This document shows positions 3,410 to 50,748 of a stretch of 64,000 nt of DNA, piece by piece (the stretch's first letter is position 1; each line of letters begins with the position of its first letter). This DNA comes from Candidatus Binatia bacterium (GTDB lineage: Bacteria > Desulfobacterota > Binatia > UBA9968 > JAJDTQ01): the NCBI GenBank assembly GCA_951813575.1, contig OX638375.1:3882752-3946751 (forward strand), written 5' to 3'. A program made the position numbers and the translations under genes. The notes beneath the pieces are model-generated. The model did no database searches. It saw nothing but the letters and a program-made list of their open reading frames with translations, and was not told the origin of the DNA.

Positions 3410-4450
3410 CTACTTTGCCCCGACCAACTGCTCGAGCCGCGCCTTGGCCCCCGGCCCGATGGAAAAGACCTGCTTCACCAGGCCCAGGATCTCGGCGCCC
3501 GACAGGTACGATATCTCGATGCCGATCTTCTTGGACGCGGCCTTGAACTCCGGGTCGTCCAGGGTGTTCTTGAAGGCGGTCTGGAGCGCCTCCAGCCGAT
3601 CCTTCGGGATGCCCGGCGGCGTCACGTAGGCGCGGAAGAGCTTGTACGGCGCCAGCCACGCCTCGTAGGCCGCGCGCTCGTCGTCGTTCTTGATGTGGTC
3701 GGCGAACAGCGGCAGGTTCTTGAGCACGGGCTCTTCCTTGTCGCCGGTGGTGAGGAAGGGAATCAGCCGGTCGCCTTCCTTGCCTTTGAGCATTTCCGTG
3801 GCCTGGATCCGCACCGACTCCCACGAAGAGCAGTACCCGTCCACCTCCTTGCGTCCCACCGCCGCGCGGATCTGCGCCGTGCCGTTGTATCCCCTGACGA
3901 CGTTGATCTTGCCGCCCACGAAGTCCCGCAGGATCAGCGGGGTGTCGCGGGTGAGGGTGCCCGCCGATCCGAAGTTGACGGGCTTCGGGGCGTTCAGGAT
4001 CCCCTTGAGGTCGGTGACCCCGGTGCGCGACATCACCATGCACGTGGGCGTGGCCTTGCCGGCGCTCCCCAGCCAGCCGAACTTGGCATTGTCGAACCGG
4101 ATGCCTTTCTCGCCGAGCACCTGCTTCATCACCAGCCCGCTGTTGGTCGCCCCGATCACCGAGCCGTCGCGTTTGGCGACGTTGTAGAGGTAGTTCATGG
4201 CGATGGCAAAGCCGGCGCCGGGCATGTTCTGGACGATGATCTTCGGGTTGCCCGGAATGTGTTGGGTGAGAGTGCGGGCGATGGTGCGGGCGTAGGTGTC
4301 GAAGCCTCCTCCCGGAGACGAGCCCAGGATGAACCGCAGGGTCTTGCCCTTGTAGAACTCCGCCACGTCGGCCCATGCGGTGGCCGGAACGGCCACGCAG
4401 AGGAGCAACGAGAATGCGGCAGCAAATCGGTACGGATGTCTCATCGGCAT
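3410..4450 (-). CDS. TctC/Bug-family periplasmic substrate-binding protein (tripartite tricarboxylate transporter receptor)
   Basis: 346 aa. N-terminal signal peptide (AAFSLLLCVAVPATAWA). Typical Bug-family length and motifs (GGGFDTYAR, QNMPGAG). Confidence 0.8.
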   Translation of the reverse strand: MPMRHPYRFAAAFSLLLCVAVPATAWADVAEFYKGKTLRFILGSSPGGGFDTYARTIARTLTQHIPGNPKIIVQNMPGAGFAIAMNYLYNVAKRDGSVIGATNSGLVMKQVLGEKGIRFDNAKFGWLGSAGKATPTCMVMSRTGVTDLKGILNAPKPVNFGSAGTLTRDTPLILRDFVGGKINVVRGYNGTAQIRAAVGRKEVDGYCSSWESVRIQATEMLKGKEGDRLIPFLTTGDKEEPVLKNLPLFADHIKNDDERAAYEAWLAPYKLFRAYVTPPGIPKDRLEALQTAFKNTLDDPEFKAASKKIGIEISYLSGAEILGLVKQVFSIGPGAKARLEQLVGAK

Positions 4451-26628: not shown

Positions 26629-26664
26629 GCCCCCTCCCGTCACCGGCCTCCGGGTGCCCTCCAT

Positions 26665-26693
26665 GTCACCCCGGGCTTGACCCGGGGTCCAGG
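26665..26693. repeat. Solo copy of palindromic repeat arm GTCACCCCGGGCTTGACCCGGGGTCCAGG (family 1)
   Basis: Identical to the left arms at 50326-50354 and near-identical to 30992-31016. Lies between convergent genes. Confidence 0.6.
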
Positions 26694-26713
26694 CGGCGGG
26701 GCGGGGGGTGGAC

Positions 26714-28486: not shown

Positions 28487-28648
28487 TAGTGTTGTGTCTC
28501 ACAAACAGGTTTGCAAAGATGCGCCGGATTTTTTGTTGTCGGCAAGGCGCGATGACGAGCAGTGGCGGTTACCACGCGAGGAAGAGCAACGCAGCCGACG
28601 ACAAAAAAGACCAGCAGATTTGTAAACCTGTTTGTGAGACACAATACT
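28487..28648. repeat. ~160-bp imperfect palindrome with 31-bp near-perfect terminal arms (possible MITE, regulatory hairpin or structured RNA)
   Basis: Left arm TAGTGTTGTGTCTCACAAACAGGTTTGCAAA. Right arm TTTGTAAACCTGTTTGTGAGACACAATACTA is its reverse complement with 2 mismatches. A second inner inverted pair is CCGGATTTTTTGTTGTCGGC / GCCGACGACAAAAAAGACC. Confidence 0.6.
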
Positions 28649-28659
28649 ACGTCCGCCCG

Positions 28660-29719: not shown

Positions 29720-30987
<1,268 letters not shown>

Positions 30988-30990
<3 letters not shown>

Positions 30991-31130
30991 ACTCCGGGCT
31001 TGACCCGGGGTCCAGGCGTCGAACCGGCCAGGTCGCCCCTTCGCTGGACCCCGGGTCAAGCCCGGGGTGACGGGAAGTGGATCCGGGGTGACGGGAAGTG
31101 GATACGGGGTGACGGAGAGTGTCCCCGGGG
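30988..31130. repeat. Composite palindromic repeat element, family 1 (left arm / loop / right arm / 22-bp tandem x2.5)
   Basis: CTCCGGGCTTGACCCGGGGTCCAGG ... CTGGACCCCGGGTCAAGCCCGGGGTGAC, followed by GGGAAGTGGATCCGGGGTGAC x2 plus a partial unit. Confidence 0.7.
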
Positions 31131-42422: not shown

Positions 42423-43256
42423 ATGGCGAGACCCCAAGAAGCGGCGCAGCCGGAAACCATTCAGGGCGTGGTCAATTACCTTATAAAAGACACCGAGGCC
42501 CCCGCGAGCTACGGCGGCATGAGCCAGAAGGAGGCCGACCGCAAGCGCCGGGGCAACTACGAGAGCCACGCGGTCACGATCCACAACGCGCGGCTCCTGG
42601 CCGATGAGCTTTCGCTGGAGCGCCAGGGTTTCGTGCTGGTGCGGCACGACACCCTGATGAAGGACTTCTATGACGAAGAAGAGGTACGCACGGTCTACTA
42701 CAAGGAGACCGAGGAGTTGGTGAAGCGTGCCTCGGGGGCGAAGCGCGTGGTGGTGTTCGATCACACGCTGCGCTCGGGCGACGAGGCCACGCGGGAGGCG
42801 AAGCAGGTGGGCGGCCCGGTGCGCGGCGCCCACAACGACTACACGGACTGGTCGGGGCCGCAGCGGGTGCGCGACATCCTGCCGGACGAAGCCGAGGAGC
42901 TGCTCAAGGGCCGGTTCGGCGTGATACAGACCTGGCGGCCCATCAACCGCCCGGTGATACGGGATCCCCTGGCCATCTGCGACGCGCTCAGCACCGGCAT
43001 GGAAGGCGCCATCCCCACCGCGCGCATCTACCCGGACCGGCGCGGCGAGACGCTCCACTACACCTTCAATCCCAACCATTACTGGTACTACTTCCCGCAC
43101 ATGGAACGTCACGAGGCCGTGGTGTTCAAGACCTTCGAGTCCGAGAAGGACGGCCGTGCCCGCTGGACCCTGCACTGCGCCTTCGACGACCCCGACACGC
43201 CTCCGGATGCTCCGGCCCGCGAGAGCATCGAGATGCGCACTCTGGCATTCTTCTAG
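42423..43256 (+). CDS. CmcJ/NvfI-family oxidoreductase-like protein (putative non-heme iron hydroxylase)
   Basis: AGGAGG RBS before the ATG at 42423. HND (HxD) and downstream His candidates. Family assignment from memory only. Confidence 0.35.
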   Translation: MARPQEAAQPETIQGVVNYLIKDTEAPASYGGMSQKEADRKRRGNYESHAVTIHNARLLADELSLERQGFVLVRHDTLMKDFYDEEEVRTVYYKETEELVKRASGAKRVVVFDHTLRSGDEATREAKQVGGPVRGAHNDYTDWSGPQRVRDILPDEAEELLKGRFGVIQTWRPINRPVIRDPLAICDALSTGMEGAIPTARIYPDRRGETLHYTFNPNHYWYYFPHMERHEAVVFKTFESEKDGRARWTLHCAFDDPDTPPDAPARESIEMRTLAFF

Positions 43257-43265
43257 GAGATTTTC

Positions 43266-44741
43266 ATGAGCAACTTCGACGTGGTGGAAACCACCATCGA
43301 CGCGGTCCACAAGGCGTACGAATCGGGGCAGCTGACTCCGCGGGACCTGGTGCAGGCCTACATCGACCGGATCGAGGCCTACGACAAGAAGGGCCCGGCC
43401 CTCAACTGCATCATCACGGTCAACCCCGCCGCCCTGGAGGAAGCCGACCGGCTCGGCGCCTCGCCCCTGACCGGACCGCTTCACGGCATACCCATCGTCT
43501 TCAAGGACCAGGGCGACGCCAAGGGGATGCCCACCACCCTGGGGAGCGTGCTGTTCAAGGATTACTACCCCGACCGCGACTGTTTCGTGGTGGAACAGCT
43601 CAAGAAGGCCGGCGCCATCATCCTGGCCAAGGCCACCCTGGGGGAGTTGGGCGGCGGCGACACCCACGGCTCGCTGTTCGGCTCCAGCCGCAATCCCTAT
43701 GACGTCGAGCGCACGGTGGGGGGCTCCTCCGGCGGCTCCGGCGGCGCCGTGTCCGCCAACTTCGCCACGGTGGCGGTGGGGCAGGAGGGTTACGCCTCCA
43801 TCCGCCGTCCCTCCACCTGGAACTGCGTCGCCGGCATGCGCCCCACTCCGGGGCTCGTGAGCCGGGGCGGCGTGTACGACGGCTGGCCGGACATGACCGG
43901 TTCGCTGGGCCCCATGTGCCGCACGGTGGGCGACATGGCGCGGCTGCTGGACGCGATGGTGGGCTACGACCCCGAGGACCCGGTGACCGCCCGGGGCGTG
44001 GGGCACGTACCCCCGAGCTATACCGACTTCCTGGACGCCAACGGCCTCAAGGGCGCCCGTCTCGGGATCCTGCGCGAGCCCATGGGATACATGGCGGAGC
44101 CGGACACCGACGACTTCCGGCAGATTACCGAAGTGTTCGACAAGGCCGTGGCGGACCTTCAGGCCGCCGGCGCCGAGGTGGTGGATCCGGTGGAGATACC
44201 GCAGCTCAACGAGCTGCTGGCCAAGCGGTCCTGGAACCCCGCCAACGCTGACGCGGCCTTCAAGCTGTACTACGGCCGCAGCGCCAAACGGCCCTTCGAA
44301 TCGCGCCAGGAAGCCATCGATTCCCCGGACTTCGCCAAGGTCCACTACAACGCCCAGAACCGCTGGAAGGCGCCCCTGGACGCGGACAAGCACTACGAGT
44401 ACCTGCTGGCCCGCGAGAAGCTCATGGGCAACCTGCTGAAGGTCATGGCCGACCACCGGCTGGACGCCATCGTGCACAAGTCGGTGGAACACCAGCCCAC
44501 GCTCATCACCGAGGGTATCAAGCCGCCCTGGGTCAACATGAGGGGGGTGCCCCACATCAACACGTTCCTGATCTTCGTCTCGTCGGTGGTGGTGCCCGGG
44601 GGCTTTACCCGGGACGACCTGCCGGCCGGGATCACCTTTCTCGGACGGCCCTACGACGACGGCCGCATGATCAAGTTCGCCTACGCCTACGAGCAGGCCA
44701 CGAACCACCGCAAGCCGCCGGCCACCACGCCCGCGCTGTGA
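43266..44741 (+). CDS. Amidase (amidase-signature family)
   Basis: GGSSGGSGGAVSANF signature. Ser-cisSer-Lys context. 491 aa. Confidence 0.85.
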   Translation: MSNFDVVETTIDAVHKAYESGQLTPRDLVQAYIDRIEAYDKKGPALNCIITVNPAALEEADRLGASPLTGPLHGIPIVFKDQGDAKGMPTTLGSVLFKDYYPDRDCFVVEQLKKAGAIILAKATLGELGGGDTHGSLFGSSRNPYDVERTVGGSSGGSGGAVSANFATVAVGQEGYASIRRPSTWNCVAGMRPTPGLVSRGGVYDGWPDMTGSLGPMCRTVGDMARLLDAMVGYDPEDPVTARGVGHVPPSYTDFLDANGLKGARLGILREPMGYMAEPDTDDFRQITEVFDKAVADLQAAGAEVVDPVEIPQLNELLAKRSWNPANADAAFKLYYGRSAKRPFESRQEAIDSPDFAKVHYNAQNRWKAPLDADKHYEYLLAREKLMGNLLKVMADHRLDAIVHKSVEHQPTLITEGIKPPWVNMRGVPHINTFLIFVSSVVVPGGFTRDDLPAGITFLGRPYDDGRMIKFAYAYEQATNHRKPPATTPAL

Positions 44742-44764
44742 CCGCCGTGCAGGACGTCTCATGC

Positions 44765-45120
44765 CGTCATTCCCGCTCCTCCTCCGGCATTCCGCATCGC
44801 CCTCCGTCATTCCCGCTCCTCCTCCGTCATTCCCGCTCCTCCTCCGTCATTCCCGCGAAAGCGGGAATCCAGGAGGGGTGGGGCGGGGAGCCGCGTGCCC
44901 ATCTCCCCCCTCCTGGATTCCCGCTTTCGCGGGAACGACGGAGGGCCTGGATTCCCGCTTTCGCGGGAACGACGGAGGGCCTGGATTCCCGCTTTCGCGG
45001 GAACGACGGAGGGCCTGGATTCCCGTGTTCGCGGGAAATGACGGAGGGCCTGGATTCCCGTGTTCGCGGGAAATGACGGAGGGGTGTGCGGGGGAGTGAC
45101 AGGACGGGGAGACATGGCGG
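44765..45120. repeat. Composite palindromic repeat element, family 2 (22-bp tandem x3-4 / left arm / loop / right arm / 34-bp tandem x5)
   Basis: Arms CGTCATTCCCGCGAAAGCGGGAATCCAGGAGGGG and CCCCTCCTGGATTCCCGCTTTCGCGGGAACGACGG. Tandem unit GGAGGGCCTGGATTCCCGCTTTCGCGGGAACGAC. Confidence 0.7.
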
Positions 45121-45157
45121 TCGTTAGTTGTTTCAAGGCAACGGGAAAGGACTGAGG

Positions 45158-45712
45158 ATGCCCCGCATACCCGAGCTCACCGAACGGGAGGCCATACCGG
45201 AGGACCAGCGCCACCACTACGACTCCATCATGGCCAGCCGGAAGCGAATCGGAGCGCCCTACGCCAACCTGCTCCACTGCCCGGACCTGGCCGCCCGCAC
45301 GGCGCATCTGGTGGGATATTCGCTGCATACCTCGGATTTTCCGCTGAAGGAGAAGGAACTGGTCATCTGCACGGTGGCGCGGGAGATGGACTGTGTCTAC
45401 GAGTGGGCCGCCCACTCGGGCCACGCCCTGGAAGCCGGGGTACGGGAGGAGGCGGTGGCGGCCATCCGTGACGGCACCGCTCCCGAGGGCCTCGACGAGG
45501 ACGAGGCGCCGTTCGTGAAGTACGTACAGGAACTGCTCCGGCCGCCGCACCGCGTCACCGAGGCGACCTTTCAGGCACTGCGGGAGCGCCTGGGGGACCA
45601 CCGGCTGGCCGAGCTCACGGGCATCGTCGGGGGTTACGTGGGCCTTGCCTGCTCCCTCAACGCGTTCGATATCGGCGCGCCCGAAGGCATGCCGGTCCTT
45701 CCCAAGGAGTGA
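45158..45712 (+). CDS. Carboxymuconolactone decarboxylase (AhpD-like) family protein
   Basis: ~185 aa. CxxxH-type core (…CTVAREMDCVYEWAAHSGHAL…). Confidence 0.65.
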   Translation: MPRIPELTEREAIPEDQRHHYDSIMASRKRIGAPYANLLHCPDLAARTAHLVGYSLHTSDFPLKEKELVICTVAREMDCVYEWAAHSGHALEAGVREEAVAAIRDGTAPEGLDEDEAPFVKYVQELLRPPHRVTEATFQALRERLGDHRLAELTGIVGGYVGLACSLNAFDIGAPEGMPVLPKE

Positions 45713-50045: not shown

Positions 50046-50748
50046 ACGAAATGCCGTCCCGGCCCTCTAAAACGTCGCCCCGGGCCCCGAAAATGGCGCC
50101 CCGGGCCCCTAAAACGTCGCCGCGGGCCCCGAAGCTGGCACCGTGGGCCTCTAAAACGTCGCCGCGGGCCCCGGAAATGGCACCGTGGGCCTCTAAAACG
50201 TCGCCGCGGGCCCCGGAAATGGCACCGTGGGCCTCTGAAACGTCACCGCGGGCCCCGAAAATGACACCGTGGGCCTCTGAAACGTCGCCGCGGGCCCCGA
50301 AAATGACACCGTGGGCCTCCAAAACGTCACCCCGGGCTTGACCCGGGGTCCAGGGGTGGAGGTGGGTTGGGCATGTTGCTTGCCAAGCCTCCCGCCCCGC
50401 CCCATCTGGACCCCGGGTCAAGCCCGGGGTGACGCAGAGGCGCCCGGGGTGACGCAGAGGCGCCCGGGGTGACGCAGAGGCGCCCGGGGTGACGCAGGGG
50501 CGCCCGGGGTGACGCAGGGGCGCCCGGGGTGACGCAGGGGCGCCCGGGGTGACGCAGGGGCGCCCGGGGGGTGACGCAGGGGCGCCCGGGGTGACGCAGG
50601 GGCGCCCGGGGTGACGCAGGGGCGCCCGGGGTGACGCAGGGGCGCCCGGGGTGACGCAGGGGCGCCCGGGGTGACGCAGGGGCGCCCGGGATGACGCAGG
50701 GGCGCCCGGGATGACGCAGAGGCGTCTGGGATGACGCAGGGGCGTCTG
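50046..50748. repeat. Composite palindromic repeat element, family 1, full copy (42-bp tandem x~6.5 / left arm / 51-bp loop / right arm / 20-bp tandem x~16)
   Basis: 42-bp unit approximately CCTCTAAAACGTCGCCGCGGGCCCCGGAAATGGCACCGTGGG. Arms GTCACCCCGGGCTTGACCCGGGGTCCAGG (50326-50354) and CTGGACCCCGGGTCAAGCCCGGGGTGAC (50406-50433). 20-bp unit GCAGRGGCGCCCGGGGTGAC. Confidence 0.75.

Follow-up and report, generated by a model that had tools for sequence, protein, structure and literature searches.

The region considered here lies in a 64-kb window (the whole stretch of DNA that was analysed; 66% G+C), in which an amidase gene is followed by a composite block of repeated, hairpin-forming units and then by a gene of the carboxymuconolactone decarboxylase (CMD) family. 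The features of the block and of the adjoining genes are as follows.

43266..44741, + strand: amidase gene upstream of the block (Pfam Amidase, E = 6.8e-75); its stop codon abuts the block
44742..45126, no strand: whole composite block, ~385 bp, right edge +/- 10 nt, delimited by alignment and blastn against relatives
44764..44843, + strand: four half-site units of 20 nt each, made up of a C-rich linker, the CGTC tag and the 5' half-stem ATTCCCGC; the loop and the 3' half are missing
44845..44872, + strand: full hairpin arm CGTCATTCCCGCGAAAGCGGGAATCCAG, an exact consensus Neisseria Transformation Sequence (NTS; PMC11893778) and a REP of the CGTC-1 type
44874..44911, no strand: 38-nt spacer between the arms of a tags-outward dimer, with G-runs on the left and C-runs on the right, partly self-complementary
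44912..45083, - strand: right array, the inverted arm plus a 14-nt linker repeated five times head-to-tail (34, 34, 34, 35, and 35 nt)
45158..45712, + strand: CMD family gene downstream of the block (Pfam CMD), which adjoins the amidase gene in relatives

The initial annotation, made from the sequence alone, described a five-part element downstream of the amidase gene, and repeat finding together with inverted-repeat analysis places such an element at 44742-45126. The left unit had been given as 22 bp and is actually 20 nt (Tandem Repeats Finder, 44764-44856, period 20, 4.7 copies, score 149); the unit, CCGTCATTCCCGCTCCTCCT, is present in three perfect copies and one degenerate copy (44784-44803), after which the full arm begins. 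The arm at 44845-44872 consists of an 8-bp stem (ATTCCCGC/GCGGGAAT) closed by a GAAA loop and carries an unpaired 5' CGTC tag and a 3' CCAG tail. Five right-hand units of 34 bp, the last two of them variant, had also been described, and the right array indeed has a period of 34 with 5.0 copies of 34-35 nt (44912-45083, 97% matches, score 284). Copies 1-3 read CGTCGTTCCCGCGAAAGCGGGAATCCAG with a G at the first stem position, and copies 4-5 (45015-45043 and 45050-45078) read CGTCATTTCCCGCGAACACGGGAATCCAG with a bulged stem and a GTGTT/AAATGAC variant. All of the full arms start with CGTC or TGTC and every arm has the tail CCAG. The inverted repeat across the spacer reaches arms of 47 nt with 89% complementarity, and the two ends of 44742-45126 pair weakly with each other (CCGCCGTG / CATGGCGG). 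A CRISPR array was considered and rejected, as the units abut and there are no unique spacers.

Orthologous loci were sought with a protein-guided scan of metagenome contigs, which yielded L121, L122, and L123 with amidases that are 97, 92, and 89% identical to that of the window. The distance from the amidase stop to the next start codon is 10-26 bp in these loci as compared with 416 bp in the window, and alignment found no counterpart of 44742 to ~45126 in any of the three. The flanks align with the relatives at 77.8-92.2%, and for L121 and L122 the blastn alignments run at 81.5-92.2% over ~10 kb with no further large gap; synteny with the three empty-site relatives is otherwise intact over ~10 kb. 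As regards the terminal inverted repeats and the target-site duplication that mark a MITE, the ends of the block pair weakly, as noted above, and the alignment shows no direct duplication at the empty-site junction. No match to the degenerate Ssn-related motif (SRM) discussed below was found anywhere in the L122 locus. Because the block is missing in close relatives it was inserted or built up in the recent past, after the lineages split. That relatives this close have an empty site shows directly that such blocks arise on short evolutionary timescales. In L122, the relative at 92% identity, ~85 bp (3905-3990) separate the amidase gene from the gene upstream, where the window has none (43255-43256). 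An exact-sequence look-up of the amidase, the CMD family protein, and the IS110 transposase described below returned no record.

Two 112-aa open reading frames on the + strand and part of a 264-aa frame on the - strand cross the block (44738-45099), with the arms translating to peptides such as VIPAKAGIQ and LDSRFRGND. These ORFs are very likely spurious because the block is absent from the relatives. The amidase and CMD genes are co-oriented and, in the relatives, separated by the short distances given above, so that the block probably lies inside a transcript. It could then be primarily an RNA element, that is, a stem-loop array that stabilises or attenuates the amidase-CMD mRNA, and both the very stable fold of the block (as ssDNA, -138.6 kcal/mol, z = -11) and reports that REPs elsewhere affect mRNA are in keeping with this. 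However, a scan of 44600-45300 detected neither promoter-like nor terminator-like sites, and the Rfam search found no family at threshold (miRNA-hairpin matches only, far under the gathering scores and taken as generic hairpin hits); the relatives, moreover, do without the block. The arm is also found between convergent and between divergent genes in the window, which is unfit for one transcript-level role, it occurs in both orientations across phyla, and the nuclease SsnA, which recognizes the motif, is inactive on RNA (PMC11893778). A primary role in RNA is therefore considered improbable, and any effect on the amidase-CMD mRNA would be a by-product.

Three further loci of the same kind are present in the window, one of them interrupted by an insertion sequence:

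26664..26692, + strand: fourth locus, a single arm TGTCACCCCGGGCTTGACCCGGGGTCCAG with one half-site-like unit before it and convergent glyoxalase and TauD genes on either side
29804-29809 plus 30994-31016: left arm of the third element, split by the insertion sequence
29810..30993, + strand: IS110-family insertion sequence, 1184 bp, inserted between GTCACC and CCGGGC in the left arm of the third element
30025-30969: IS110 transposase (Pfam DEDD_Tnp_IS110 and Transposase_20)
30994..31130, no strand: third element, with a core of the CGTCACCCCGGGCTTGACCCGGGGTCCAG type and a dimer at 30994-31072
31044-31072, - strand: right arm of the third element, followed by 3.3 half-site units of 21 nt (31061-31130)
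50064..50744, no strand: sister element, with arms CGTCACCCCGGGCTTGACCCGGGGTCCAG and a different core on the same plan
50064-50337: left array of the sister element, period 42, interpreted as a pair of diverged 21-nt half-sites
50325-50353 (+ strand) and 50406-50434 (- strand): arms of the sister element, both CGTCACCCCGGGCTTGACCCGGGGTCCAG, with the spacer at 50354-50405
50422-50744: right array of the sister element, sixteen 20-nt half-site units

All four loci are intergenic and lie amid ordinary metabolic genes. The fourth (span 26629-26713) has a G-rich tail and was absent from the list of the initial annotation. The elements at 50 kb, 31 kb, and 26.66 kb have the 8-bp stem ACCCCGGG/CCCGGGGT and the 5-nt loop CTTGA. 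The likeness that had been seen between the 44742-45126 block and the element at 50046-50748 is upheld, as the two have in common the tag, the tail, the dimer layout, and a style of spacer in which G-runs are followed by C-runs. The spacers at 44874-44895 and 50354-50375 open with 3-4 G-runs (e.g. GGAGGGGTGGGGCGGGG) and close with C-runs, which places a G-quadruplex-like tract just 3' of the hairpin on each strand. Spacers of this form are likewise seen in loci from Binatia and related MAGs, and a near-identical spacer start, AGGGGTGGGGCGGGG, is present in locus L271.

Motifs of this type have been described twice. According to Di Nocera et al. 2013 (PMC3733652), CGTC-tagged REPs have an unpaired CGTC tag (TGTC and CCTC variants are allowed), a stem of 8-9 bp whose first two positions are 'almost invariably' AT, a loop of 4 nt in family 1 and 5 nt in families 2-4, and a CCA tail; they form a dispersed multi-copy family, mostly as tags-outward (HH) dimers, and the dRS3 repeat of Neisseria is placed in CGTC-1. 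The authors assigned them no dedicated transposase and saw no CGTC repeats at the flanks of RAYT or IS200-type genes. Chenal et al. 2025 (PMC11893778) described the 28-nt NTS, CGTCATTCCCGCGMAVGCGGGAATCYRG, and also defined the degenerate SRM. In that study SsnA, a 94-aa single-domain GIY-YIG protein, bound the hairpin only as ssDNA and, in vitro, cut ssDNA a few nt upstream of the tag, RNA not being a substrate. A split motif with its halves on separate strands was still cut, and SsnA activity was lost when the stem sequence was altered and the hairpin retained. The authors also found that ssn genes across phyla have motif flanks, in the layout NTS-ssnA-NTS, and that motif-rich genomes are often host-associated.

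The arm at 44845-44872 matches the NTS consensus CGTCATTCCCGCGMAVGCGGGAATCYRG exactly. The SRM pattern has 7 matches in the window compared with 1.04 +/- 1.08 in 50 shuffles; copies 1-3 of the right array fail the pattern at one position (G for A at the first stem position). We therefore consider it likely that 44742-45126 is a cluster of Ssn-related motifs, or CGTC-tagged REPs, with an arm of the NTS / CGTC-1 type. Judged by their sequences, the 50-kb, 31-kb, and 26.66-kb loci are CGTC-2-like and the 44742-45126 block is a CGTC-1/NTS dimer cluster. The proposal that the two kinds of palindrome are subfamilies of one element class is sustained, as both cores fit the CGTC-tagged REP / SRM class (PMC3733652 and PMC11893778), at least 120 stretches carry the exact arm, partner arms show compensatory changes in the stem, and IS110-family elements sit at the same relative position in both. 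The composite palindromes of the window are now identified as members of a published repeat class; as the class was catalogued in 2013 and its protein partner given in 2025, the finding is mostly already explained.

The agreement with these descriptions is close, with some differences in detail. The window has in common with the NTS/SRM-Ssn system (PMC11893778) the identical 28-nt sequence, the tag, the tail, the occurrence in many phyla and, in fetched loci, Ssn-like genes flanked by the motif, whereas no cognate nuclease gene was found in it and its motifs are packed closely together into one composite, in which a dimer is combined with half-site arrays and a tandem array of 34-nt units. With the CGTC-1/CGTC-2 REPs of PMC3733652 it has in common the CGTC tag, the 8-bp stem, the 4- or 5-nt loop, the CCA tail, the intergenic location, and the tags-outward dimers with a structured spacer of 20-100 bp. 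In contrast, that paper has tandem dimers as negligible and clusters as rare, while a five-copy tandem and long half-site arrays are present here. Its CGTC REPs begin almost invariably with AT; here the first two stem positions are AT in the 44845 arm, GT in copies 1-3 of the right array, and AC in the second, CGTC-2-like subfamily. Additionally, the Binatia MAGs that give the closest repeat matches here are not among the species named in the passages of PMC3733652 that were consulted, where alpha-Proteobacteria predominate.

The repeats also resemble those of Neisseria, since the core fits the dRS3 consensus ATTCCC-N8-GGGAAT, the copies form intergenic clusters, and IS110-like recombinases integrate there. 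With at most 1 mismatch, this consensus has 6 matches in the window where 0.16 would be expected, and 0/100 shuffles reached 6. The host genome, at ~66% G+C, is not Neisseria, and the units are contiguous, of 34 nt or 20-nt half-sites. Despite the dRS3 consensus, a Neisseria NIME was rejected because the hairpins are not separated by RS units of 50-150 bp.

The same features bring to mind the REP/BIME and REPIN-RAYT systems of E. coli and Pseudomonas, which are likewise built of tagged hairpins in inverted doublets, are non-autonomous, and are tied to a single-strand DNA nuclease. In a classical REPIN/BIME the REP doublets are copied by a RAYT, and the short tagged hairpin, the inverted doublets with their spacer, the intergenic and clustered placement, and the empty site in relatives would all suit such an origin. 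But REPIN-RAYT systems have a GTAG tag and a Y1 HUH transposase, with copying by the enzyme supported; GTAG is required for this assignment and the tag here is CGTC. A RAYT or IS200-type gene with CGTC repeats at its flanks was not found by Di Nocera et al. (PMC3733652), and the gene that abuts the motif in the fetched loci encodes a GIY-YIG nuclease. A classical REPIN is for these reasons very improbable.

The exact 28-mer GTCATTCCCGCGAAAGCGGGAATCCAGG was found in at least 120 stretches of species-representative genomes. By record titles, the matches listed include Alpha-, Gamma-, and Deltaproteobacteria, Dehalococcoidia, Binatia, and Nitrospirota, as well as Planctomycetota, Acidobacteriota, Verrucomicrobia, Bacteroidetes, Patescibacteria, Atribacteria, and others. 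Among the matches listed, those most similar overall to the 44742-45126 element are from Binatia MAGs (81-87% over 100-185 nt, including the spacer), and several of these, judged by their assembly names, apparently come from sponge-microbiome projects. The window, which probably derives from a related organism, adds instances whose closest listed matches are in Binatia MAGs, in line with the published remark on host association. The exact motif (27-28-mer) is also present in IMG/VR, in 68 stretches of viral or proviral contigs (L201-L268); in one of these, L216, the motif lies on either side of an ssn-like GIY-YIG gene. Transfer of the system from host to host may be aided by phages or prophage borders.

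An inverted partner usually follows the 28-mer after 15-60 nt, often with a different stem (e.g. ACCCCCGC, ATGCCCGC, and ATTCCGGG), and adjacent motif pairs are in 45 cases tags-outward (HH), in 6 tandem, and in 5 tags-inward. A covariance analysis of the hairpins had been proposed and was run on these partners. The partner arms were chosen by frame only (NGTC-N20-CCAG on the opposite strand, <=110 nt from the query), which gave 34 distinct sequences whose tag and tail are invariant by construction of the selection. In their 8-bp stem 96% of the cells form standard pairs, as compared with 86.9% in shuffled sequences (0/500 reached 96%), and pairing drops to 23-48% when the partner is slid. Compensatory changes from TA to CG on both sides were found at stem position 2 in 13 sequences and at stem position 3 in 16. 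The tail CCAG is present in 216 of the 250 matches to GTC plus a perfect hairpin (loci and window), ~145 of the 250 being copies of the query 28-mer itself.

It had been recognized that the palindromes could be chance low-complexity GC-rich sequence if neither further copies nor compensatory base changes existed. Copies do exist, at the 31-kb and 26.66-kb loci in the window and in the genome stretches counted above, compensatory changes were found, and chance is excluded, the fold of the block (z = -11) also speaking against it. Slippage alone can make tandem arrays; an exact 28-mer common to many phyla, together with the shuffle statistics and the lack of unique spacers, leaves chance, purely local slippage with no wider family, and a CRISPR-like array with almost no probability.

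The further claim of the initial annotation, that both subfamilies are recognized by one common factor, is only inferred; the known binder of this motif class is the Ssn GIY-YIG family (cd10448). The 'common factor' is likely to be a member of this family of ~100-aa GIY-YIG single-strand nucleases. In L117, L105, L216, and L008, all of them fetched loci, the motif directly flanks single-domain GIY-YIG ORFs of ~100 aa (Pfam PF01541), in the same layout as the published NTS-ssnA-NTS. No ssn gene was found in the 64-kb window, either with a motif regex or with phmmer using two Ssn sequences against all ORFs >=50 aa, nor was one found in loci L269-L278, and the Ssn link in this organism is therefore inferred. 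As changes to the stem abolish SsnA activity even when the hairpin is kept (PMC11893778), the two subfamilies may need different Ssn paralogues instead of one protein. Recognition by SsnA is sequence-specific, which makes cleavage of the G-variant and bulged arms of the right array uncertain.

Published work on the family suggests that the element would act as DNA and not as RNA. The hairpin would form when the strand is single-stranded, as in replication, repair, or DNA uptake, and a ~100-aa GIY-YIG Ssn, presumably encoded elsewhere in the genome, would bind it and nick a few nt 5' of the tag. The dimer probably arrived as one unit via a copy mechanism, possibly an Ssn-dependent one, and the arrays would then have grown locally by slippage or unequal exchange. 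The near-identity of neighbouring units suggests that array growth was recent.

The arrays themselves have a one-sided structure. The half-site unit, composed of the tag, the 5' half-stem, and the C-rich linker, amounts to the complete 5' strand of an extended hairpin and is repeated every 18-23 nt, in most cases every 19-21. Of 232 motif matches from the genome loci and the window, 23 have a second copy of their first 11 nt (<=1 mismatch) 15-26 nt upstream; for the viral contigs the figure is 12 of 141 matches, mostly from redundant Neisseria-like regions. Recurrence of the 3' half downstream was never seen among the same motif matches, and the other controls were also zero. Half-site arrays are therefore found on the tag side only, which is the side of the Ssn cut, in several phyla and in Neisseria-like contigs. 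They include 44764-44843, 50064-50337, 50422-50744, and 31061-31130 in the window and arrays in L027, L075, L078, L099, and other loci. A single deletion in the 34-nt full unit was rejected as the source of the 20-nt half-site, since the 3' ends of the units differ (AGG vs TCCT).

One tentative and rather doubtful explanation is that the half-site arrays are footprints of Ssn action, in which the nuclease repeatedly nicks on the 5' side of the tag and strand-displacement repair then duplicates the nicked half. If this reading is true, it would be the first evidence of this GIY-YIG nuclease driving the amplification, and perhaps the spread, of CGTC-type repeats. Alternatively, the arrays could be natural 'split-NTS' substrates, in which each half-site pairs in turn with a single 3' half-stem to give several cut sites. 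Text searches of PMC11893778 and PMC3733652 returned no mention of half-site arrays, and that of PMC11893778 none of tandem arrays of genomic repeats. Arrays restricted to the tag side appear to be new; their one-sidedness may point to an amplification mechanism.

The hairpins serve as specific insertion sites for IS110-family elements, as in the 31-kb element. The ends of the insertion sequence (29810/30993) follow from an alignment with two copies of 90% identity whose outer flanks differ, and when the flanks are rejoined, GTCACC followed by CCGGGCTTGACCCGGGGTCCAGG restores an intact arm. The element has a 215-nt non-coding left end, target duplication is absent, and the transposase P0001 is 98% identical to that of the window. 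Relatives that are ~75% identical, including copies on a 5,675,913-bp Binatia chromosome, are inserted between GTCATT and CCCGCGAAAGCGGGAATCCAGG, at the same position of an NTS-type arm. The position in the hairpin is fixed in 3 + 8 fetched IS110 copies, which represent 7 distinct sites, as L271 and L273 share flanks; L271 and L273, the latter from the Binatia chromosome, also have in common the IS110 transposase (P0014) and the local gene order.

Two segments of the left end vary with the target. One (CGTCAC vs CGTCAT) matches the left target flank in each IS lineage, and the other (CCCGG vs GCGGG) is reverse-complementary to the 5 nt with which the right flank begins. Bridge-RNA guidance has been described for IS621, and IS110 elements are known to make use of repeats already in place (PMC11208160 and related titles). 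This covariation suggests that the segments are reprogrammed bridge-RNA guides. Compared with IS110 elements of the IS621/ISPpu10 type, which insert into REPs by means of a bridge RNA (PMC11208160 and related titles), the elements here are alike in the fixed hairpin position and in a non-coding left end with segments matching the target flanks, and differ in that the target is a CGTC-type motif and that the putative guide role is drawn from the covariation of two IS lineages. Insertion of IS110 in the 31-kb element, with putative guides covarying with the repeat subfamily, appears to be new, and the two IS110 lineages whose putative guides track two repeat subfamilies are a by-product of the analysis.

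The fixed hairpin position in the 3 + 8 copies and the guide-like matching segments could also be taken to mean that the repeats are attachment sites created or maintained by IS110-family elements; the phages of Neisseria use dRS3 likewise, and a known IS110-type gene was found next to dRS3 in a Neisseria-like contig. Most copies of the motif, however, are without an insertion sequence, the known behaviour of IS110 (PMC11208160 and related titles, as above) is to use repeats that already exist, and IS110 recombination would not yield hairpin dimers or half-site arrays. Such an origin is thus highly improbable.

An inverted repeat of a different kind lies at 28487-28649 in a divergent intergenic region. 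It is AT-rich with 36-nt arms that are 89% complementary and 91 nt apart, and could represent a MITE or a pair of operators. One of its arms matches a Binatia MAG locus (L021, 4543-4610) at 85% over 68 nt.
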